From the IMG/VR virus record IMGVR_UViG_3300022752_000016: DNA of 64,000 nucleotides, one strand, 5' to 3'. Source of the DNA: a virus. Lineage: Duplodnaviria; Caudoviricetes. Below the pieces are notes generated by a model. The model did not search any database. It was not told the DNA's origin and saw only the letters and a program-made list of their open reading frames with translations. A program made the position numbers and the translations under genes. Of the stretch, positions 19,728 through 46,629 are shown one piece after another. Each line of letters opens with the position of its first letter. The stretch's first letter is position 1.

Positions 19728-22700
19728 ATGATTAGAGATGTTTTTTATTATGGCAAGAAGCCTAACATTCATCCAAGAGAAAGATTTGCTAAAAACCTTG
19801 AAGAAGCAAGAGAGTTATCAAATACAGAGCATTTTTGGATAATAAATGAATTTTGTGATTATAAAAATTTTGATTGGGATTTCGATTACGAATTTTTACC
19901 AGACGAGGATGTATGGGCGCAGGATCATATAAATATATGGCCAAGTTTATATCAAAAAGATAGTGGAACATGGTTAGTTCCAAATAATAATAGTTTAGTG
20001 AGAATTTACAGAAATGATGTACAACCTGTAGATAGAAAAATAATTAAAGATAATTGGATTATTTATTCACAAATAGACAGTAAAAAATTTGATTTAAAAT
20101 GGCATCCTGATCCACTTGATCCGCCCTTTATTTATGTATGGGGGAATAAATTTATACCAGCAGAACTGCAACCTACAATAGAATATTATACACCTAGTGC
20201 TGTTGAACGAAAATACATGGGTGAAGTTGAGGTATTACCACAAATGGAACGTTGGGTAATGGTTCAAGATATAACTGAGGATTTTGATTTAACTTGGAGA
20301 CCTGATCCAAGAGAACCTCCGTACATTTACGTTTGGGGAAACAAATATATACCTGGAGAGTTACAATCTACAATTGAATATCATACTCCTAATGCAATCA
20401 ATAAAAAATATATGGGTAATGCACCTGTTTTACCTGATAAAAATTGGAAAATTATACAGGAAATTGATAAAACTAAATTTGATTTATCTTGGAGACCTGA
20501 TCCACGTGAACCTCCATACATTTATACTTGGGGAAATAAGTTTATTCCTGCTGAAATAATGCCTACAATTCAATACTTATGTCCAAACGCTACTGAACAT
20601 AAGTACATGCAAGAACCATTAGAGGTATTACCTGAATATGAAAAATGGGTAGAAGTACAGGCTATCGATAAAACTAAATTTGATTTATCTTGGAGACCTG
20701 ATCCACGTGAACCTCCATATATTTACGTTTGGGGAAACAAATATATACCTGGTGAATTATTACCTACATTGCAATATAATTGTATAGGAGCAAAAGAATA
20801 CAAATATATGGGTGATGTTGAGGTTATTCCAGAACACGAAAAATGGGTAGAAGTACAGGCTATCGACAAAACAAAATTTGATTTATCTTGGAGACCTGAT
20901 CCACGTGAACCTCCATACATTTATACTTGGGGAAATAAATATATACCTGGTGAATTAATGCCAACTTTAGAATATAGATGTATTGGAGCAACAGAACGCA
21001 AATATATGGGTGATGTTGAGGTTATTCCAGAACACGAAAAATGGGTCGAAATTCAACTAATTGATAAGACAACATTTGACATGACATGGAGACCTGATCC
21101 AAGAGAACCTCCATATATTTACGTTTGGGGGAATAAGTTTATTCCTGCAGAATTAATGTCAACTTTAGAATATAGATGTATTGGAGCAAAAGAATACAAA
21201 TATATGGGTGATGTTGAGGTTATTCCAGAACACGATAAATGGGTCGAAGTGCAGTTAATTGATAAGACAAAATTTGACATGACATGGAGACCTGATCCAA
21301 GAGAACCTCCATATATTTACGTTTGGGGGAATAAGTTTATTCCTGCAGAATTAATGCCAACTTTAGAATATAGATGTATTGGAGCCACTGAGCGAAAATA
21401 TATGGGAAATATTGATGTATTGCCTGAGTTTAATAGATGGGTCGAAGTTCAAACTATTGATAAGACTAAATTTGATATGACATGGAGACCTGATCCAAGA
21501 GAACCACCTTATATCTATGTATGGGGAAACAAATATATACCAGGCGAATTAAAATCAACAATTGAATACCATACCCCTAATAGTACTGAACGTAAGTATA
21601 TGGGAGATGTTGATGTTTTACCAGAAACAGAACGTTGGAATATTGTTCAAAAACCTAAGGATTTTGATTTAACATGGAGACCTGACCCAAAAGAACCACC
21701 ATACATTTATGTATGGGGCAATAAATATATACCTGGGGAGATACAATCTACAATAGAATATCATACACCTGACGCTCAAGAAATAAAATATATGGGTGAC
21801 ATAGAAGTTGTACCATATTATGAACATTGGAATATTGTGCAAGAAGTCGGTGATGATTTTGATCTTTGTTGGAGACCTGATCCAAGAGAACCACCATACA
21901 TTTATGTATGGGGGAACAACTATATACCTGGCGAGGTTAAAGCTACAATTGAATATCATACACCTAATAGTATTGAACGCAAGTATATGGGTATTGCCAG
22001 TGTTAAACCTGACAAAAATTGGAAAATTACACAGGATATTGATATTGAAAAATTTGATTTATGTTGGAGACCTGATCCTAGGGAGCCTGCATACATTTAT
22101 ACTTGGGGTAATAAGTATGTAAGTGCTGAACTAGTACCAACCATTGAATATTATACTCCTAACGCCACTGAACGTAAGTATATGGGTGAAGTAGACGTTA
22201 TTCCTGAATTTGATCGTTGGGTAGAAGTACAACCAATTGACAAATCAACATTTGATATGACATGGAGACCTGATCCAAGAGAACCACCATACATTTATGT
22301 ATGGGGTAATAAACATATTCCCGCCGAACTAAAACCCACGCTAGAATATTATACTCCAAACGCAACAGATAGAAAATATATGGGTAATGTTGAAGTTTTA
22401 CCAATAAACGAAAATTGGAAAATTACCCAAGAAGCTATAAACTTTGATTACACATGGAGACCGGACCCAAGAGAACCTGATTATATCTATGTATGGGGTA
22501 ACAAGTATATACCTGGCGAGTTAAAACCTACAATTGAATACATTTGTCCTAACGCTATTGAAAAAAAGTATATGGGGAATGTTGAAGTAGCCTCTGAATG
22601 GGACAAATATAGAATACTGATCCCTGTTGATAAGAATAGTTTTGATTTTAGTTGGAGACCTGATCCAAGAGAGCCTCCCTATATTTACGTTTGGGGCAAT

Positions 22701-25556
22701 CAAACTAATAGTGCCACTATAGAACCTACGATAGAATATCATTGCACAGGTGCTGTTGAACGCAAATACATGGTTGACAGAGTAGCTACAACGTTACCAG
22801 ATATTGAAAAATTTAAAATTTTAATTTCAGTAAAAGATTTTGATTTTAGTTGGAGACCAGATCCTCATAGTCCTCCTTATATCTACGTGTTTGGTAACCA
22901 ATGGCATGATGCAATGACTGAACCTACAGTAGAATATCATGTACCTGGTGCGAAAGAAAAAAAATATATAACAGATATTATAGCGAAGGTAAGTCCTACA
23001 CAGGAAAATTGGAAAACACTTATCCCTGTTGTAGATTTTGATTATAGCTGGAGGCCTAACCCACACAGTACTCCATACATTTATGTATTTGGAAATCAAT
23101 GGAATCCTATTGAATTAGAGCATACAGTTGAATACCATACACCTGGGGCAAAAGACTACAAATATATAACAGATATTGTAGCAAATCTTAAACCAACTAA
23201 CACTGAAAAACATTGGAAAAGGTTGTTACCTGTTGAAAGTTTTGATTATAGTTGGAAACCTGATCCAAGAGAACCTGCATTAATATATGTATTTGGAAAT
23301 AAATGGAATGATTCTAAGACTGAGCCTACTATTGAATATCATTGTGAAGGTGCTACAGAACGAAAATACTTAGATTTTCCTGTAGCTAAACCCACAGTTG
23401 AATTTAAATATTGGTCCATATCAAATAATTACGATCTAGAATCATTTGATTTTAGTTGGAGACCTAATCCGCATAGTCCACCACAAATTTATCAATGGGA
23501 AAATAATGGTCCAAGATATAATGTACCAGGTGCTACAGACGTTGTATTAATGAAAAGAATTGATACTGACTATGCACCGAAAATTAATAAATATTTTATT
23601 AAAACTAACCTTACCGATTTGATTAGTGAACATCCAAATGAAGTATTTTGGGCTTTAAATCCTGATCTAAATTATGATAAGTTTGACTTTACATGGAAGC
23701 CTAATAAAGAAAATTTTACACACATAAATGTTTTTGGTAATGAATATAGTAAAAATACCCACACATATTATATAAACGGGCCAATGTATAACTTGGGATA
23801 TAGGCAATATAATTATATAAATAATCAAAAATTTAGTGGGGATACAAACCTTTCAATGTTTTTTATTGATAGGGGTAATGATTATAGTCAAAAAAGATTC
23901 GATGCACTTAAAACAAAGTACCCACAATTACAAAAAACAAGATTTCTAAATTCTTGGGTAGATACTATTAATCGTTGCACTCAAAAATCTTATACAAAGT
24001 TCCTTTGGGTTTTAAGTAGCGAATTAGATTATAGTGAATTTGAGTTTGACTTTTATCCTAGTCCATGGCAAGAAAAAATGGTACATGTGTTTGGTACACA
24101 ATGGAGTCATTGGGGTAATACATACCTAATAAACAAGGAAACATTTGCAAATGATACTAAGTATATAAAAATTATTGAACATTTGTCATGTTTAAATTTT
24201 GTCAAAACTAAACGTGCAAAAGCTGTGGACATTATTTATGATATTGTCTATATTGACCACAAAAATACAAAAGTGGATAGTAATAAATTTAAATATGTGA
24301 TTGAGTATGAGGATAATTATTATAAAACTTTTAAAAAATTAATTGATGTTTTACCTAAAAAGAAAGAGCATTATATTTGGATAATAAGTTCAATCTGTGA
24401 TTATACAAACTTTAATTTTACTTACATTTGTGACCCATTTGCTAAAGAACAATTACACGTTTTTCCAAGCGATAAACAAAAATATGGTGACACATTTTTT
24501 GTAGACGTTAATAATTTACGTGAACAAATTGAAAATATTGAAAAACTTAAAAATTTTACAAAAATAAATTTTAATAATCATCAAACAGTAAAAAGATTAG
24601 ATTGTCCTAAATTTGTAATAGAGGATGATACTTTTGTAAATTCAATTAATGTTGAATTTAATTTTCCCTATGCAAATTTTGTAACGGTAGATAATTGTAC
24701 ATTAAATGTTGTGGACGATGATCCAATCAATTTGTGGGAAGAAGAAACAAAAAATATTATAGTGCAAAGTACAGGTAATACAAATATTATTATACCCAAA
24801 GAAGTAAAGAAATATGTAAAAAAAGAATTGTATGATTATCCTTATATCACTAAACGTGATAAATTACAATCAAGTTTTCCATTAGATATTGTTTTTTTAA
24901 GTAATGGTGAAAAAAATGCTGATGCAAACTATGAACATCTATTATCTGTAATAAAAAATAAACCAAATAGAGTAATAAGAGTTGATGGTATTAATGGTAG
25001 AAAAAATGCAAATTACGCAGTTGCAGATATTAGTAATACTCCTTGGATGTTTGTAGTATTTGCAAAGTTAAAAGTAAAAGAAAACTTTGATTGGGATTGG
25101 CAACCTGATAGAATGCAATTACCAAAACATTATATTTTTTATGCTAGGAATCCTGTTAATGGTTTGTTTTACGGACACCAAGCAATGATAGCATGGAATA
25201 AAAATATAGTTTTACAAACACAAGGAGTAGACTTAGATTTTACAATGGAAGGTAACCATGAAGTTGTTAAGATAGATAGCGGAACACCTTATTATAATAC
25301 AGATGAATATAGCACATGGAGGACTGCTTTTAGAGAGGTTATAAAATTGAAGTATTACAACAATAAAGAAAGTCAGCATCGTTTAAAAGTATGGTCAAGT
25401 ATAGCAGAAGGTGATTTTGCCCAATTTAGTTTACAAGGAGCAAAACATGCTATAGATTACTTTAATGCGGTTGATGGTAATATTGATAAATTAAAATTAA
25501 GTTACGAATGGGCTTGGTGTAAAGAATATTTTCTTAAAAAGTATGATAGAATTTAA
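19728..25556 (+). CDS. 1942-aa tandem-repeat protein with C-terminal glycosyltransferase-like domain
   Basis: 18 clear ~60-aa repeats (FDxxWRPDPREPPYIYVWGN...) plus degenerate copies; C-terminal DIVFLSNGE...RVDGING...WRTAFREVIKL domain. Confidence 0.8.
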   Translation: MIRDVFYYGKKPNIHPRERFAKNLEEARELSNTEHFWIINEFCDYKNFDWDFDYEFLPDEDVWAQDHINIWPSLYQKDSGTWLVPNNNSLVRIYRNDVQPVDRKIIKDNWIIYSQIDSKKFDLKWHPDPLDPPFIYVWGNKFIPAELQPTIEYYTPSAVERKYMGEVEVLPQMERWVMVQDITEDFDLTWRPDPREPPYIYVWGNKYIPGELQSTIEYHTPNAINKKYMGNAPVLPDKNWKIIQEIDKTKFDLSWRPDPREPPYIYTWGNKFIPAEIMPTIQYLCPNATEHKYMQEPLEVLPEYEKWVEVQAIDKTKFDLSWRPDPREPPYIYVWGNKYIPGELLPTLQYNCIGAKEYKYMGDVEVIPEHEKWVEVQAIDKTKFDLSWRPDPREPPYIYTWGNKYIPGELMPTLEYRCIGATERKYMGDVEVIPEHEKWVEIQLIDKTTFDMTWRPDPREPPYIYVWGNKFIPAELMSTLEYRCIGAKEYKYMGDVEVIPEHDKWVEVQLIDKTKFDMTWRPDPREPPYIYVWGNKFIPAELMPTLEYRCIGATERKYMGNIDVLPEFNRWVEVQTIDKTKFDMTWRPDPREPPYIYVWGNKYIPGELKSTIEYHTPNSTERKYMGDVDVLPETERWNIVQKPKDFDLTWRPDPKEPPYIYVWGNKYIPGEIQSTIEYHTPDAQEIKYMGDIEVVPYYEHWNIVQEVGDDFDLCWRPDPREPPYIYVWGNNYIPGEVKATIEYHTPNSIERKYMGIASVKPDKNWKITQDIDIEKFDLCWRPDPREPAYIYTWGNKYVSAELVPTIEYYTPNATERKYMGEVDVIPEFDRWVEVQPIDKSTFDMTWRPDPREPPYIYVWGNKHIPAELKPTLEYYTPNATDRKYMGNVEVLPINENWKITQEAINFDYTWRPDPREPDYIYVWGNKYIPGELKPTIEYICPNAIEKKYMGNVEVASEWDKYRILIPVDKNSFDFSWRPDPREPPYIYVWGNQTNSATIEPTIEYHCTGAVERKYMVDRVATTLPDIEKFKILISVKDFDFSWRPDPHSPPYIYVFGNQWHDAMTEPTVEYHVPGAKEKKYITDIIAKVSPTQENWKTLIPVVDFDYSWRPNPHSTPYIYVFGNQWNPIELEHTVEYHTPGAKDYKYITDIVANLKPTNTEKHWKRLLPVESFDYSWKPDPREPALIYVFGNKWNDSKTEPTIEYHCEGATERKYLDFPVAKPTVEFKYWSISNNYDLESFDFSWRPNPHSPPQIYQWENNGPRYNVPGATDVVLMKRIDTDYAPKINKYFIKTNLTDLISEHPNEVFWALNPDLNYDKFDFTWKPNKENFTHINVFGNEYSKNTHTYYINGPMYNLGYRQYNYINNQKFSGDTNLSMFFIDRGNDYSQKRFDALKTKYPQLQKTRFLNSWVDTINRCTQKSYTKFLWVLSSELDYSEFEFDFYPSPWQEKMVHVFGTQWSHWGNTYLINKETFANDTKYIKIIEHLSCLNFVKTKRAKAVDIIYDIVYIDHKNTKVDSNKFKYVIEYEDNYYKTFKKLIDVLPKKKEHYIWIISSICDYTNFNFTYICDPFAKEQLHVFPSDKQKYGDTFFVDVNNLREQIENIEKLKNFTKINFNNHQTVKRLDCPKFVIEDDTFVNSINVEFNFPYANFVTVDNCTLNVVDDDPINLWEEETKNIIVQSTGNTNIIIPKEVKKYVKKELYDYPYITKRDKLQSSFPLDIVFLSNGEKNADANYEHLLSVIKNKPNRVIRVDGINGRKNANYAVADISNTPWMFVVFAKLKVKENFDWDWQPDRMQLPKHYIFYARNPVNGLFYGHQAMIAWNKNIVLQTQGVDLDFTMEGNHEVVKIDSGTPYYNTDEYSTWRTAFREVIKLKYYNNKESQHRLKVWSSIAEGDFAQFSLQGAKHAIDYFNAVDGNIDKLKLSYEWAWCKEYFLKKYDRI
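20080..23520 (+). repeat. Intragenic tandem array of ~180-nt units (tggagacctgatcca core)
   Basis: Near-identical DNA units, most similar between ~20480 and 21550. Confidence 0.9.
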
Positions 25557-25704: not shown

Positions 25705-25774
25705 TAAAGAATTGTTGTATGAAGTTGAAGGAAAAGTGCTGCGGACGCGGGTTCGACTCCCGCCTGGTCCACCA
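25705..25774 (+). ncRNA. ssrA: tmRNA acceptor piece of a circularly permuted (two-piece) ssrA
   Basis: GGAC-GCGGG-TTCGACT-CCCGC T-arm, CTGGTCC-A-CCA end pairing with GGGCCAG at 26001 including G3-U70; TGTTGT (25713) pairs with ACAACA (26042); 5' end approximate. Confidence 0.9.
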
Positions 25775-25813
25775 TAAGGAAATATCCATAAGGAAATATC
25801 CATAAGGAAATAT
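25772..25813 (+). repeat. Three perfect copies of CCATAAGGAAATAT (14 nt)
   Basis: 25772-85, 25786-99, 25800-13; first copy begins at the tmRNA CCA, last ends at ATG 25814. Confidence 0.95.
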
Positions 25814-25999
25814 ATGAGAGTTACAAACACAGAATCAATTCAACTTACACCTAAAGATGGTAAATGGTATGCTATGCCAAATGACCAATACATTAGATGG
25901 AATTTTGATGAGAGAATTTGGGATTATATGATCACAAAAGAAGGGGACACAAAGCCTAGATTTTGGGATCAATTACCGGATGGTACGGTTTCCTTATGA
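25814..25999 (+). CDS. 61-aa Trp-rich protein inside the tmRNA intervening segment
   Basis: SD AAGGA 5 nt upstream; fills the intervening segment; TGA ends 1 nt before the tmRNA 5' G. Confidence 0.65.
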   Translation: MRVTNTESIQLTPKDGKWYAMPNDQYIRWNFDERIWDYMITKEGDTKPRFWDQLPDGTVSL

Positions 26000-26000
26000 T

Positions 26001-26170
26001 GGGCCAGACATGGTTTCGACGGGGTAAAGAGTACGGATATGGACAACACGGTAGGCGAAGACCGCAAATCTAGCAAAGCAAATAGACGCAAATGACGACT
26101 ATTTTTATCAGGATCTCAAGCTAGCCGCTTGAGCCTGACGGGGTAGGAAAGACCTTGTAACCAAACAAAC
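26001..26170 (+). ncRNA. ssrA: tmRNA coding piece; tag ANDDYFYQDLKLAA* (26088-26132)
   Basis: GGGCCAGACATGGTTTCGACGGGG 5' end, AAATAGAC-GCA resume context, LAA-stop tag, stop codon in CTCAAGC/GCTTGAG hairpin; 3' end approximate. Confidence 0.9.
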
Positions 26171-38780: not shown

Positions 38781-39689
38781 ATGTCTGAGCAACAAGTTAT
38801 TAATTTGGGTACTTTATCAATTGAGGAAACTTTAAGCACTTCAAATGCTAATATTGTTTTGGCAAATATTAATGTTGGAACTTTACCTAATGATGGTTTA
38901 GGTGATCCATTAAGAATTGCATTTAGTAAAATCAACAATAATTTTAGTAATTTAATAAGTACGCTTGGTGGTAACCTAAGTAGTACAATAGAACTGACAC
39001 AAGTAGAGGATTTTAGAGAAACTACTAGTATAGAAAACAATTTATATATTAACCAACTCAGTATTTTTAATAATAACGTAAGCACTGTAACAAGCACTCC
39101 TTTACCCATAGTAAGTACTCCTATTAATTCTGCAAATCTTGCTACCCAAATAGGTCCGTTTGGAAATCAGTTGTATATTAATATTGGTAATACCCCAAAT
39201 GATGGACAGGGAGATCCCTTACGTGTTGCCTTTGGCAAAATCAATAATAATTTTAGTAATTTATTTTTTACTACAACTAATACCACATTAAGTTATACTG
39301 TTGGAGTATTGGATCAAATTATTTTTGAAGCAGATGCTAATAAATTTACACAGGCAGAATTTAAAATTCAAACTTCCGATAGTGAAGGACCCAATAGTCA
39401 AAATATAACTATATCTGCTCAAATGAAAAATAGTGGAACAAATGTTAGATGGACGGGATATGCTACAATATTTGATGGATCTCCGCTTACAAATTACAAT
39501 TTAGAAGTAATTGGAGGAAATGTAGTAATTATTGCTAAACCTATTGCAAATACTACAATGACACATTTTATTGCTAGCTCTATTACATGGCAAGGTGATC
39601 CTTTACCTGGATTAGACATTGAACTTGATGGATACATGAACTCAGTAATGTCTACACAAAATAATTTAAATATCACTACAGAAAATTAA
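38781..39689 (+). CDS. Virion structural protein with two T4 gp9/gp10-like motifs
   Basis: IN(V/I)G..PNDG.GDPLR.AF.KINNNFSNL occurs twice; late box GATAAATA at 38757. Confidence 0.7.
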   Translation: MSEQQVINLGTLSIEETLSTSNANIVLANINVGTLPNDGLGDPLRIAFSKINNNFSNLISTLGGNLSSTIELTQVEDFRETTSIENNLYINQLSIFNNNVSTVTSTPLPIVSTPINSANLATQIGPFGNQLYINIGNTPNDGQGDPLRVAFGKINNNFSNLFFTTTNTTLSYTVGVLDQIIFEADANKFTQAEFKIQTSDSEGPNSQNITISAQMKNSGTNVRWTGYATIFDGSPLTNYNLEVIGGNVVIIAKPIANTTMTHFIASSITWQGDPLPGLDIELDGYMNSVMSTQNNLNITTEN

Positions 39690-40090
39690 TGAGAGCAAAA
39701 GAATTTATTAAAGAACAAAAATTAAGTGATGTCCATGATGGATTGGATGTAGCTGCTAAAGCATTACCCAATACATTTGTTATTCCTGAATTAAAAAATC
39801 AAGACTTTTATGATTTGTACAGATTTGGTGTGGCGATAGCTGATGTTCGTGGTAATTCAGGTGATGTAAAAAATATTGACCCTTATAAACCAAAATTTCG
39901 TCCTGAAACAAGATGGGGTGAAAATCAAATTATAAGTAGTTTTGATCCTAATATAGGAAAAATTATTGACCAAGCACTTAAGAAAGTTAAAAAAACAGGA
40001 AAACGTGCAGTAAGTAGTCCAGGTAGTGATGAATTTGATGATACCTTAAAAAATAGTCCTATTAAACCTTTTAAAGGGTATAAACGATGA
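39689..40090 (+). CDS. Putative internal head protein (MRAKEFIKE leader)
   Basis: N-terminus resembles T4 capsid targeting sequence MKTYQEFIAE; C-terminus PIKPFKGYK. Confidence 0.55.
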   Translation: MRAKEFIKEQKLSDVHDGLDVAAKALPNTFVIPELKNQDFYDLYRFGVAIADVRGNSGDVKNIDPYKPKFRPETRWGENQIISSFDPNIGKIIDQALKKVKKTGKRAVSSPGSDEFDDTLKNSPIKPFKGYKR

Positions 40091-40464
40091 GAGCAAATGA
40101 GTTTATATCTGAGGCTAAAAAGAACGGAAAAATTAGAAAAAGTCATAGGTTTGCAACAAGAGGGTTACATAAGTTTAGAGATGAAACTTTAGCAGATAGA
40201 ATATATGAATTAAATAGAATTATGATGGCAGCTGCATCAACTGATGGCACATTTATGCCAGATATGAATCATGAAAGTTGGGCAGGAAGATATGATATCG
40301 CTGCCCCCTACACTAAACAAGAGCATGATATGTTAAAAATGGCTTATGCTGTAAACGGTACAGAATATAAAGATTTAAATAATGGCGATTTGCGTAGTCA
40401 AGAATTACCTGGGACAAATACAACAAGTATAGTAAAGCCATTTAAAGGCTACAAGAAAAAATAA
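40087..40464 (+). CDS. Putative internal head protein (MRANEFISE leader), paralogue
   Basis: Same leader type; C-terminus IVKPFKGYK. Confidence 0.55.
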   Translation: MRANEFISEAKKNGKIRKSHRFATRGLHKFRDETLADRIYELNRIMMAAASTDGTFMPDMNHESWAGRYDIAAPYTKQEHDMLKMAYAVNGTEYKDLNNGDLRSQELPGTNTTSIVKPFKGYKKK

Positions 40465-43812: not shown

Positions 43813-46629
43813 ATGCCACTAGACAAAAATTCTTACAATCTTAAATTATATAACCTGTTAAAGACACGAGGTTATCGTCCTATTCCATTAGATAGTAAAG
43901 GCGAACGTTCAGAAGCACCACAGGAAGCAGATGTTTTCAAGTTTACTTTTTCAAAAGCTGATGAAAAAGTAGGCACAATGTATGCAACTGTAGAAGAAGG
44001 TGACATAGTCCTTTATTATGATGAAGATGAAGTTAGTAAATCAAGCGATGCTAATACATCAGGAACAGAGTTTACTGATAGTTTTACAGGATTGATAAGA
44101 CATTTAAAGCATTGGGCAATGACAAGACAATTAGGTTTTAGAACTGAACCTGATGACAAATTAGGTAGTGATATGGCGCAAAGGGAATATATGAAAAAGA
44201 AAGAAAACATTAGCGAGGGATATTATCCCATGGGTAAATCAGCAAGTTACAATGATGCTGTACCTACAGTAAAAATTATTTTACAACATACTCGCCAAAT
44301 ACAAGAGGGTGAACAACGTTTTCGCCATGTAAGTAAGATATTTTTAGAAAACACTTTAGGTGAAAGAATTCTTGCACCAACTATTCGTCCTGGCATTGCC
44401 CAAGTATATGCCAGACATATTGCTGAAGGTGGAGTTCCTAATGATGAGCGTTGGAATCATATTAAAAGCCTTTGTGAAGATTATAGTAAAATGGCAGGTT
44501 TTGTTCGTGCTGTAAAAAATAATCAATTTAATGAATCAGCACAACAATTAGTTAATGAAGGTGTTAATCATTATCAAAGTTTGCGTGAAACCTTAGGAAG
44601 AATGCGTGGTCATCGTGGGTATAACGCTTATTTTGAAAGTTGGACGCCAACATTAATGGAAGAGGAAAATTCTGATAATACATTAAATGAATTATTTGTC
44701 CAAGAAACATTAGATCCTAGAATTGAAAGTGTTCTTCCAATATTAAGTAAATTAAGAAAAACAGTTGGTGAAATGAAAGAAGTTAATGAATTAGCGGAAT
44801 GGGCTGAAGAATTAACTGAAGCGCCTGGTGCCGAAACATTAGCACATAATGAAAAAACAGAAAAGTCACGTTTGGATGCATTTGACCTAGAGGAAAGTGA
44901 TGATGCAGTAAAAGCAGGTCAAGTAGCCCGTGATAAAATTAAGAAGCCTGCGTTTATGCGTAAAGCAGCAGGCGAGAGGCCAGCCACATTAGGTGATGTT
45001 GAAAGATCACAGCAGCATCGTAGTAGCCAAGCAATGGTTGGTCAAAAAGGTGAAGAAGTTGAAGAAAGTGGATTACAAGCATATCTTGGTAATAAGAAGT
45101 ATGGCAAAGATGGTATGGATGCTTTACGCAAAGCAGGGCGTGATGGTGCAAGCAAAGAAAAAATGGCTAAGATTCGTGCCAAGTATGACAAATTAGATGA
45201 AGAAGGTGTGGCGGAAGCAGCCAAATGGCGTGATCCAAAGTATAAAGATAAACTCTATACACAAGAACCCGGTGATAGTGATGACTATGACAATATTGGC
45301 TATGGATACGATTTTCCAGAACGGCCAGAAAATGACCCAGGTCAGAAACGTAGAATGGGTGGTGTAGGCAGTGAATTTGATCGCAATGACCCTTTGGTCA
45401 AGGGGCAGGGCATTGGTCGTAGCGGCATCAAGCACAGCCTCAATCTTGCTGGCAAGAGAAAAGGTCTGCCGTCAAGAGATCAAATCACCAGCCTTAAAGG
45501 CAGTATCAAAGATGCACATGGAAAACATCGCAAGCCCAATTTGCCAGAGCAAGGTGTGGCGGAAGGCTGGAATGACCATTTAGATGATCCTGATGATTAT
45601 GAAGGACATTTGGAAAGATTGCGTGATTTAGCAGACCTAAAGCGTATGCAGGATAGAGAAAAAGAATCTACGGATAAAGAAGATAATAGTAAAAAAAAAG
45701 TAGATGAGGTTAATCCACATTATTACGATAGTGATTTAGATTATTATGATGCTGTTAGGCGTAGTAAATTACCTAAAATGCCTCGTCCTGGAGATGAGGA
45801 CTTTGAAAAATACGATACCTTTGATAAACCATATGATGACTATGACGACGATGATAAAGATTTAAAGGAAGGTGTAACAAAAAGGTCATTATCAGAAATG
45901 GATTCTCAAGGTTATAAAGGATACAGGGACAATGAAGATAAAGGTAAAGGTCCAGAGAAAGTAGTCAAGCCAGCTAAGGCAAAAGATGTTGCTAAAGATG
46001 CTGAAAAAGAATTGACCAAGGTAATGGATAAAGCACACAAGAAAGATGTGGCAGAAGGCAGTGGCTCAAAATACAAAGTTAAATCTATTGGTAAAGATAG
46101 TAAAGGTGATTATTATATAAGTCCAGTCACTGGTAAAAAAGTATATAAGTCAGGAGTTAATAAAGGTGATCACGAAAATCCTAAAACAGGAGAAATTAAA
46201 AAAGGTGTGGCGGAAGGCTCGCTGCGTGAATTCGCACCCGATGATGGGGGTGACGGTGGCGATGATGGGTTCAGTGAAGAAACACTAAAGCGATTTGCGG
46301 CACAATGGTACAACGGTGATGAAGATCCCAGGATCGAACGTGCCCTAGCAGCAGCTGGTTGGGAGATCGGACAGGATGAGGGCTACGACGATGAGCCCGG
46401 TGTGTTCGTGGTACAGGTTGGTGATGTCAACGGCAATAGCTATCTAAGTTGGCCAGCACACGAATTGAAGCAAGGTGTCTCGGAAGACCTAGATGCTAAT
46501 CAAAAGCGTGTAGGTCAATTGGGCCCAACTGAAAAAGTCAAAAATAATAATATTGGTAAATTGGTTGGAGCAAGTGAATCAATACAACATGATCCATTAA
46601 AAGATATTTTAAGATTATCGGGTAAATAA
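43813..46629 (+). CDS. 938-aa putative head/core protein: conserved-looking N-terminal half plus modular C-terminal polyprotein
   Basis: Follows terL behind late box ACTAAATA; C-terminal half is segmented by (G/D)V(A/S)E and other [LIV]xE sites. Confidence 0.65.
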   Translation: MPLDKNSYNLKLYNLLKTRGYRPIPLDSKGERSEAPQEADVFKFTFSKADEKVGTMYATVEEGDIVLYYDEDEVSKSSDANTSGTEFTDSFTGLIRHLKHWAMTRQLGFRTEPDDKLGSDMAQREYMKKKENISEGYYPMGKSASYNDAVPTVKIILQHTRQIQEGEQRFRHVSKIFLENTLGERILAPTIRPGIAQVYARHIAEGGVPNDERWNHIKSLCEDYSKMAGFVRAVKNNQFNESAQQLVNEGVNHYQSLRETLGRMRGHRGYNAYFESWTPTLMEEENSDNTLNELFVQETLDPRIESVLPILSKLRKTVGEMKEVNELAEWAEELTEAPGAETLAHNEKTEKSRLDAFDLEESDDAVKAGQVARDKIKKPAFMRKAAGERPATLGDVERSQQHRSSQAMVGQKGEEVEESGLQAYLGNKKYGKDGMDALRKAGRDGASKEKMAKIRAKYDKLDEEGVAEAAKWRDPKYKDKLYTQEPGDSDDYDNIGYGYDFPERPENDPGQKRRMGGVGSEFDRNDPLVKGQGIGRSGIKHSLNLAGKRKGLPSRDQITSLKGSIKDAHGKHRKPNLPEQGVAEGWNDHLDDPDDYEGHLERLRDLADLKRMQDREKESTDKEDNSKKKVDEVNPHYYDSDLDYYDAVRRSKLPKMPRPGDEDFEKYDTFDKPYDDYDDDDKDLKEGVTKRSLSEMDSQGYKGYRDNEDKGKGPEKVVKPAKAKDVAKDAEKELTKVMDKAHKKDVAEGSGSKYKVKSIGKDSKGDYYISPVTGKKVYKSGVNKGDHENPKTGEIKKGVAEGSLREFAPDDGGDGGDDGFSEETLKRFAAQWYNGDEDPRIERALAAAGWEIGQDEGYDDEPGVFVVQVGDVNGNSYLSWPAHELKQGVSEDLDANQKRVGQLGPTEKVKNNNIGKLVGASESIQHDPLKDILRLSGK
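45203..46486 (+). repeat. Dispersed motif AAGGTGTGGCGGAAG (encodes GVAE), 3 perfect and 2 variant copies
   Basis: Perfect at 45203, 45551, 46202; variants GATGTGGCAGAAG (46045) and GGTGTCTCGGAAG (46474). Confidence 0.9.

Follow-up and report, generated by a model that had tools for sequence, protein, structure and literature searches.

This study concerns a gene of a tailed virus (Duplodnaviria; Caudoviricetes; IMG/VR record IMGVR_UViG_3300022752_000016), located in a stretch of 64,000 nucleotides, to which we refer as the window. The encoded carrier protein starts with a constant N-terminal domain, behind which follow four or five unrelated modules separated by the peptide (E/Q/K)GVAE(G/D) (Table 1). 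The underlying DNA motif, AAGGTGTGGCGGAAG, is found in exact form at 45203, 45551 and 46202 of the plus strand, where it had been placed in a preliminary description of this DNA, and with two mismatches at 46043 and 46472, the G/D-V codons of these variants beginning at 46045 and 46474, the positions given in that description. All five copies are in frame in the open reading frame (ORF) 43813-46629, where they encode GVAE, GVAE, DVAE, GVAE and GVSE, and this ORF is the only place with the exact motif in the 137-kb record to which the window belongs. Three exact copies less than 1 kb apart might point to chance or to a recent internal duplication within the carrier gene, a reading that we regard as already refuted since none of 100 dinucleotide-preserving shuffles reached the five AAGGTGTGGCGGAAG-like matches, the flanks of the copies are unrelated and the same word occupies hundreds of joints in other phages.

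Table 1. Features of the carrier gene in the window (aa, amino acids; GC3, GC content at third codon positions).
Feature	Coordinates	Strand	Remarks
Carrier gene	43813-46629	+	938 aa plus stop; 18 nt 3' of terL, co-oriented
N-terminal domain, constant carrier part	43813-45204	+	aa 1-464; >2000 metagenomic homologues
Linker site 1, GVAE (GGTGTGGCGGAA)	45205-45216	+	exact motif copy 1
Cassette M1	45217-45552	+	aa 469-580; GC 0.464, GC3 0.384; compositionally foreign
Linker site 2, GVAE	45553-45564	+	exact motif copy 2
M2a	45565-46044	+	aa 585-744; start resembles the stretch of L004/L005 after the degenerate site EEGMEEG
Decayed/hybrid linker, DVAE (GATGTGGCAGAA)	46045-46056	+	matches KKDVKEG site near the C-terminus of relatives
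Cassette M2b	46057-46203	+	aa 749-797; GC 0.299
Linker site 4, GVAE	46204-46215	+	exact motif copy 3
Cassette M3	46216-46473	+	aa 802-887; GC 0.543, GC3 0.477
Decayed linker, GVSE (GGTGTCTCGGAA)	46474-46485	+	backbone homology resumes at 46466-46469
M4	46486-46626	+	aa 892-938; first half of conserved tail (DLDANQKRVGQLGPTEKV...) and C-terminal amphipathic end

The first ~470 residues of the protein are common to more than 2000 metagenomic proteins, whose tails differ greatly and whose total length ranges from 550 to 1139 residues. In the simplest member of this family, found at locus L009, the N-terminal domain is followed by a single site and a conserved tail of ~103 residues (...DEQGVAE/DLDANQKRVGQLGPTEKV...KAHKKDVKEGQEDLDAILRIIRK), and other members contain one to six extra segments between GVAE sites. 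In the window, this tail is split and permuted, with its second half (SEMDSQGYKG...DKAHKK, ending in KAHKKDVAEG; 45880-46056) displaced upstream to the end of M2a and thus preceding M2b and M3, and its first half (46486-46626) following them. The arrangement suggests an unequal exchange in which a GVAE site recombined with the DVKEG site of the tail itself. The conserved C-terminal tails at L004, L005, L015 and L020 contain the sequence PYAKGG (TATGCTAAAGGTGGT), and YAKGG is rare, with 8 copies in 142 carriers.

The modules also differ in their base composition. The GC content of M1, M2b and M3 had previously been counted by hand, and our values (Table 1) agree with these counts. The heterogeneity is present at third codon positions of M1 and M3, whose GC3 compares to 0.15-0.23 in the N-terminal domain, TerL, gp32, UvsX and the native pieces of the tail. 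An origin of the motif itself from high-GC donors was considered and rejected, as high-GC carriers hold single, probably chance copies and arrays reside in genes with a GC3 below 0.45.

The preliminary description had proposed that the GTG-GCG spelling of the linker is conserved at the level of DNA, and this property extends beyond the window. It is reflected in the codon usage of 80 IMG/VR loci that were found through their N-terminal domain and are hence unselected for motif DNA, which correspond to 70 unique genes with 51-95% identity in this domain and contain 38 unique GVAE sites. At these sites, Gly is encoded by GGT in 38 of 38 cases (compared to 54% in the background of the same genes), Val by GTG in 34 (7.3%), Ala by GCG in 35 (4.7%) and Glu by GAA in 37 (85%), and a Gly following the GVAE sequence by GGC in 21 of 25 cases (21%). 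In the invariant Gly, Val and Ala columns of the N-terminal domain, which served as control, codons are mixed, and the commonest one accounts for 38-78% and is never GTG or GCG. Taken together, the mixed codons in invariant columns and the counts at GVAE sites define a frozen core, which is best written as GGTGTGGCGGAAGRC and which is usually preceded by CAA or GAA. The DNA of the joint is thus frozen at synonymous positions across diverged phages and unrelated carriers, with codons that are otherwise avoided, and the free variation of synonymous GVAE positions that had been named as evidence against shuffling is not seen.

A conservation of nucleotides could alternatively serve the mRNA or its translation, either by a programmed pause on rare GUG-GCG codons that would assist the folding of modules or by RNA processing, with shuffling as a by-product. 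Such a role would be compatible with these genes using GTG and GCG less than any other Val or Ala codon and with the location of the sites at domain boundaries, but a pause would not require the fixed common codons GGT and GAA, or GGC at the +1 position, and many joints use ordinary codons in the form of V-x-E-[GD]. Since the flanks are unrelated, no conserved flanking RNA structure is possible, and the breaks of homology exactly at the motif would be left unexplained, which together renders this explanation highly improbable.

A total of 142 unique carriers contain 399 modules, 300 of which are singletons, and 33 families recur across different carriers and positions. In 11 of 11 homologous internal module pairs from different contexts, the cores are 52-100% identical whereas the flanks are at noise level (0.42-0.58 in global alignments). 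DNA alignments show 86-100% identity within modules but unrelated surroundings, the breaks being located at the motif, and in base-by-base alignments the similarity switches on and off at GGTGTGGCGGAAG. One cassette of 150 nt is 98-100% identical in three contexts, two of which are neighbouring genes of one locus. As an observation on a single locus, the genes L190:2258-4078:+ and L190:4454-5389:+ share a 50-aa cassette whose DNA is 100% identical from motif to motif, with unrelated flanks.

The same pattern is found in the window, which shares 71-86% identity with its nearest relatives over the block from terL to the end of the N-terminal domain. Its backbone homology to L004, L005, L009 and L015 stops with the final base of motif copy 1, at 45217, and is back at the last site (Table 1). 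In lake metagenomes, M1 and M2b are contained on contigs with 4-20 times the depth of the backbone, where unrelated sequence begins exactly at the motif copies: in run X5, the segment 45204-45565 (M1) resides on a contig of ~7-fold backbone depth with unrelated flanks from the motifs onward, and in both X2 and X5, contigs covering 46070-46216 (M2b) have 8-20 times the backbone depth, with divergence setting in at the motifs. A relative from another run (X8) is devoid of M1 (45236-45503 missing), M2b and M3. All loose contig ends in the lake runs fall on motif copies, and apparent joints with short sides (20-28 nt) across the repeated word were left out of the evidence.

The extent of this exchange is illustrated by M3, which is found in 411 representative protein clusters, 337 of them at E <= 1e-10, in proteins of 99-1601 residues and at any position within the chain. 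Among the best 150 of the 411 clusters, 77 different neighbours precede it and 98 follow it, mostly connected by QGVAEG-like joints. Cassettes are thus gained, lost, duplicated and swapped as units that extend from motif to motif, both among genes and among phage lineages, and in-frame shuffling of cassettes at the motif is well supported. Neither a fixed module order nor the absence of modules from other contexts, both of which had been proposed as grounds for abandoning the idea, is encountered, as order and content differ between close relatives and modules recur, flanked by the motif, in other orders and in unrelated carriers.

The word is in fact not a property of one gene family. Over 100 further viral ORFs, none of them with the window's N-terminal domain, contain the 15-mer in frame. 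An exact scan of IMG/VR for the 14-mer GGTGTGGCGGAAGG retrieved at least 120 stretches, and likewise at least 120 for its reversed control word. The raw 14-mer counts are uninformative, as both words give the same lower bound, and it is the reading frame, the number of copies per ORF and the GC content of the locus that discriminate between the two. Among the stretches listed, 136 of 160 copies of GGTGTGGCGGAAGG are read as GVAE in the longest ORF that spans them and the frames of the reversed control are scattered; two to four copies are present in 28 of the 120 stretches listed for the motif versus 0 of the 120 listed for the control, and the median GC of the locus is 0.425 versus 0.54 among the 120 stretches listed for each. 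The window's N-terminal domain is present in only one of the first ~80 motif-bearing ORFs, and carrier genes are therefore unrelated. Many other motif-bearing proteins contain three to eight sites. The domains of carriers include GP88, DUF6321, DUF5872, GNAT, ParB-like (ParB_N), LysM/GH19, dCMP deaminase and LXG besides many zinc-ribbon-like and unknown small modules, and some of their modules correspond to free-standing small genes in T4-like cyanophages, such as gp114 of S-RIM8. Carriers can sit side by side in one genome, as at L190 and L106.

Genes next to other carriers encode DNA polymerase, Dps-like and ClpA-like proteins. At four unrelated loci (L122:13730-14170:-, L160:271-711:-, L097:6333-6770:- and L106:410-844:-), a gene for a Dps/ferritin-like DNA-binding protein adjoins one or more motif polyprotein genes or is found within ~1 kb of them, an assignment that was made by PHROGs for L122 and by a shared N-terminal sequence for the other three. 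A helical module of ~60 residues (DHEVxMARSD...[LP]EGWVxxKIxxAxDYLxxV) is located near the start of many unrelated carriers (L138, L160, L106, L122, L109, L200 and L124), and this module could be the constant anchoring part of carriers that lack the window's N-terminal domain.

The carrier ORF of the window is followed by a gene for a gp32-type single-stranded DNA-binding protein, a small ORF and a gene for a UvsX-type recombinase. In tblastn searches, residues 60-316 of the carrier are ~27% identical to gp278 of the Pseudomonas jumbo phage PA5oct, which is annotated as 'virion structural protein (ESI-MS/MS)' and which is located in the same terL-...-UvsX synteny. The Sinorhizobium phage Phosso has the same layout, with a homologue of 976 aa that does not contain the frozen linker. 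Among cultured phages, tblastn matched only the N-terminal domain, in the PA5oct group and Phosso, and blastn gave no match; searches of the whole carrier ORF in Pfam and PHROG returned no family. An AlphaFold2 (AF2) model of the N-terminal domain is of poor quality (predicted local distance difference test score, pLDDT, of 60), and its Foldseek comparison with the PDB found no matching fold. The nearest counterparts of TerL, and of a DNA polymerase encoded at a related locus, are those of the PA5oct/Phosso/Atu_ph07/CBB jumbo phages, and the source of the window is an uncultured freshwater/marine jumbo phage. The identical carrier protein is recorded on four contigs, the longest of 205 kb, and all junctions of the window array are spanned with 0 differences by contigs of an independent lake metagenome (X2).

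Elsewhere in the window, an ORF of 1942 aa at 19728-25556 (+) has essentially no family match. It is followed at 25713-26132 (+) by a phage-borne permuted (two-piece) transfer-messenger RNA (Rfam RF04321, 114.9 bits), for which ARAGORN predicts the tag peptide ANDDYFYQDLKLAA. Permuted molecules of this kind are typical of Alphaproteobacteria, some Betaproteobacteria and cyanobacteria, which provides a hint at the host. An argument based on late promoters was dropped, as the T4 late-promoter box TATAAATA is found at chance level in the window (19 found versus 18 expected) and only TAAATAATAA precedes the start codon at 43813.

The adjacent gp32, UvsX and UvsY genes had been viewed as a potential source of recombination. 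Their arrangement is the conserved synteny of the PA5oct/Phosso group, array-less genes included, and carriers elsewhere have other neighbours; the mechanism thus gains no support from this neighbourhood. A distinct possibility would be a dedicated site-specific recombinase or homing-type nuclease that reads the 15-mer and moves cassettes, possibly as circles, in a true integron-like system. The 15-nt site is asymmetric, retains its exact sequence across lineages and is as long as the targets of recombinases or homing endonucleases, an HNH gene is located 10 kb upstream, and the mini-circles of T4-type phages formed from promoter/stem-loop (PeSL) cassettes constitute a precedent (PMC2839356). 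However, a non-exhaustive survey of the annotated neighbours of arrays in the window and seven other loci contained no recombinase or integrase family, the array neighbourhoods vary between carriers, the motif lacks dyad symmetry and the targets of homing nucleases would be expected to erode rather than persist, and we consider such an enzyme very unlikely. The term 'integron-like' is thus appropriate only as a loose analogy, as there is no dedicated recombinase seen near the arrays, no attC hairpin and no set of separate promoterless genes. What stands of the preliminary description is the in-frame shuffling at a site conserved in its DNA, whereas integron machinery and the role assigned to the neighbouring genes are not supported.

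A second pronounced feature of the joints concerns their peptide sequence. Those that do not contain the frozen word still conform to V-x-E-[G/D], as in DVEEG, EVAEG, GVEEG and DVKEG, with GMAE or GLTE in distant carriers of M3. In the tails, V-x-E-[GD] is found 138 times compared to 16.5 +/- 3.6 in composition-matched shuffles, which corresponds to an 8-fold enrichment. Since the non-GVAE sites use ordinary Val codons, this pattern reflects a requirement at the level of the protein (a hydrophobic residue at P3, Glu at P1 and a small residue at P1') that is separate from the freezing of the DNA. In decayed and distant joints, Glu is fixed at P1 and P3 is Val, Leu, Ile or Met, with P2 being variable, and the V-A-E joints combine the Glu at P1 with the hydrophobic P3 residue that defines substrates of S77 proteases. 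The prohead proteases of T4, phiKZ, 201phi2-1 and SPN3US cut after Glu in an x-x-E motif (PMC5694885). A gp21-type protease (PF03420) is encoded in 4 of 5 related jumbo records, and the capsid protein of the related records contains KQLLAE/SSAG in its N-terminal arm. A complex prediction of a related S77 protease with a linker segment comprising two sites provided no verdict and counts neither for nor against binding.

The linker could instead be a flexible spacer that is never cut, with the product being one multidomain 'polyvalent' protein and the frozen DNA still serving recombination. Polyvalent proteins are often delivered uncleaved (PMC5512222), and cleavage at the joints is predicted from protease specificity. 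Yet the fixed Glu at P1 and Val, Leu, Ile or Met at P3, combined with a variable P2, constitute the signature of a T4-type protease site, which would be needless in a spacer, and homologous modules exist as free-standing small genes in cyanophages. On balance, we regard an uncut chain as unlikely, although it deserves consideration. The model of M3 fits independent units on flexible joints, as it predicts a small, compact alpha/beta fold that is preceded by a disordered acidic region of Gly and Asp (AF2 pLDDT of 80, with 86-93 for residues 17-84); this model has no match in the PDB.

Several observations concern the start of proteins. Two tandem small ORFs of the window, at 39689-40087 and 40087-40461 (+), begin with MRAKEFIKE and MRANEFISE. 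Similar starts (MNSKQFLKE, MRINDLLVE and MKTTDFITE) are found in motif polyproteins, such as L160:5795-8242:-, L190:4454-5389:+ and L106:3674-5110:-, and they resemble MKTYQEFIAE, the leader that targets T4 internal proteins to the capsid. A T4-like leader, M-x(2-4)-[DEQ]-[FLYIW]-[ILFV]-x-E, is modestly enriched in motif-bearing ORFs (9% versus 4%). The predicted mature N-terminus of the capsid protein, SSAGTTTAGNIATLNRV (L209/L210/L211, head modules of related 300-350 kb records), resembles the polyprotein-start motifs TTAGSVATVAQP and TTSGAVATVSQPVG.

Collectively, we favour a joint reading of the DNA and peptide features, to which we assign a probability of about 0.62. The carrier would be a virion-associated protein, in which small, unrelated cassettes are lined up in frame between a constant N-terminal domain and a constant C-terminal tail, and the joint would combine a DNA crossover word with a V-x-E/G prohead-protease site in a system of small proteins delivered by the head. 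At the level of DNA, the 15-21 nt of identity would be where crossovers are made by homologous or single-strand-annealing recombination of the phages themselves, either in co-infected cells or among copies, with the enzymes probably being general recombination proteins of the phages. Being rich in GC and unique within an AT-rich genome, the word may allow stable and specific pairing with fewer ectopic events and retention of the frame, and it would stay uniform as each new joint is built from two matching copies. At the level of protein, the T4-type (S77) prohead protease of these phages would recognize the linker as a V-x-E/G site and divide the chain, within the head, into individual small proteins comparable to the internal proteins of T4, and the released proteins would probably be delivered with the DNA as early-acting or anti-defence factors.

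A number of points weigh against this reading. Efficient UvsX-type recombination normally needs more than 15-21 nt, as known from T4 genetics, and its rate at such short identity is uncertain. Cleavage of V-x-E by a T4-type prohead protease is plausible in light of the specificity of these enzymes, from which it is deduced, and the window's own 137-kb record, which is about 40% complete, contains no match to PF03420. Many carriers that lack the N-terminal domain are located among replication rather than head genes, and the modules of the window have no recognisable function, with no match in Pfam or PHROG and, for M3, in the PDB. Selection for in-frame products could sharpen the apparent breakpoints, yet it would not freeze synonymous sites. 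Finally, combinations of modules in metagenomes could occasionally be assembly chimeras across shared modules, a concern that is answered for the window itself by the reproduction of its array in independent samples.

In a wider sense, and with less than even odds in our judgement, aquatic jumbo phages of the PA5oct/Phosso/Atu_ph07 group might share a 'plug' standard, in which one frozen 15-nt word acts as universal in-frame crossover and protease cut site, and the flanked proteins are copied between genes and lineages, possibly via mini-circles, to be expressed, packaged and released as injected factors. If true, there would be a community-wide pool of cassettes inside reading frames. The arrays themselves show how large phages can exchange entire small proteins with no need of gene starts, promoters or terminators, as one short coding word keeps the frame and probably supplies the cut that releases each unit. 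They mark hundreds of uncharacterized small proteins as likely exchangeable, head-delivered early or anti-defence factors. The joints also provide a clear natural example of how selection, or molecular drive, can act on synonymous sites in favour of recombination, a possible design rule for the loading of cargo proteins into phage heads, and a means to test the long-standing idea that conserved motifs are kept as recombination linkers.

The described organization resembles several known systems in parts of its features. In agreement with the preliminary description, full-text literature searches for the GVAEG peptide, prohead-protease polyproteins, linkers of polyvalent proteins and the shuffling of capsid-targeted internal proteins retrieved no account of such a system, and a search for modular shuffling and PeSLs led only to papers on the PeSL analogy. 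With integron arrays, it shares ordered exchangeable units, a recurring boundary site and units that are common to many genomes, but no IntI-type recombinase was found near the arrays sampled, there is neither an attC hairpin nor the logic of a Pc promoter, the word GGTGTGGCGGAAGRC is devoid of dyad symmetry with unrelated flanks between copies, and the units are in-frame protein segments in one open frame rather than genes. The polyvalent proteins of phages and conjugative elements (Iyer, Burroughs, Anand, de Souza, Aravind 2017, PMC5512222) are similarly chains of 2-15 unrelated effector-type domains that are probably packaged in heads. Other carriers described here contain comparable ParB-like, GNAT, deaminase and lysozyme-type domains, whereas the modules of the window match no family. 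Unlike in our case, the work on polyvalent proteins reports no conserved linker, DNA-level crossover site or cassette-exact exchange, and it predicts embedded zincin peptidases, while no peptidase domain was found in 54 carriers or the window ORF.

The processing of propeptides and ejection proteins in giant phages (A-x-E in SPN3US and S/A/G-x-E in phiKZ; PMC5694885) similarly involves multiple cuts after Glu by a gp21-related protease in jumbo myoviruses, although these cuts remove propeptides from single proteins and no release of a string of unrelated proteins has been described. In T4, internal proteins carry a capsid-targeting leader that is cut by gp21 (PMC3012670), and hyperplastic regions, including the loci of internal proteins, are shuffled by PeSLs (Arbiol et al. 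2010, PMC2839356; Comeau et al. 2014, PMC4122927). Common to both cases are diverse and fast-changing small proteins packaged in the head and cleavage after Glu by the prohead protease, packaging and cleavage being predicted in our case, and short conserved DNA elements at unit borders that mediate modular exchange, in T4 including mini-circles. However, the units of T4 are separate genes with their own leaders, which are exchanged at intergenic promoter/stem-loop cassettes of ~70 bp, whereas here they are fused in one frame and bordered by coding 15-mers inside the ORF.

The logic of the system is closest to recombination at conserved in-frame motifs in the tail-fibre adhesins of T-even phages, where the His boxes of gp37 were reportedly recognized as recombination motifs by Tetart et al. 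in 1998. The gp38 adhesins recombine at glycine-rich motifs (Trojet et al. 2011, PMC3157838). In gp37 and gp38, short conserved in-frame motifs flank hypervariable segments, whose swap between phages keeps the frame, and in the arrays described here in-frame motifs equally flank variable segments with homology breaking at these positions. In contrast, the segments of gp37 and gp38 are loops of one adhesin domain in one gene family, whereas those investigated in this study are whole unrelated proteins, and a single 15-nt word, which also resembles a protease site, serves many unrelated carriers and lineages. It is thus the in-frame fusion of unrelated proteins by one coding 15-mer, shared across unrelated genes and lineages and probably also serving as protease site, that distinguishes these arrays from the systems described previously.

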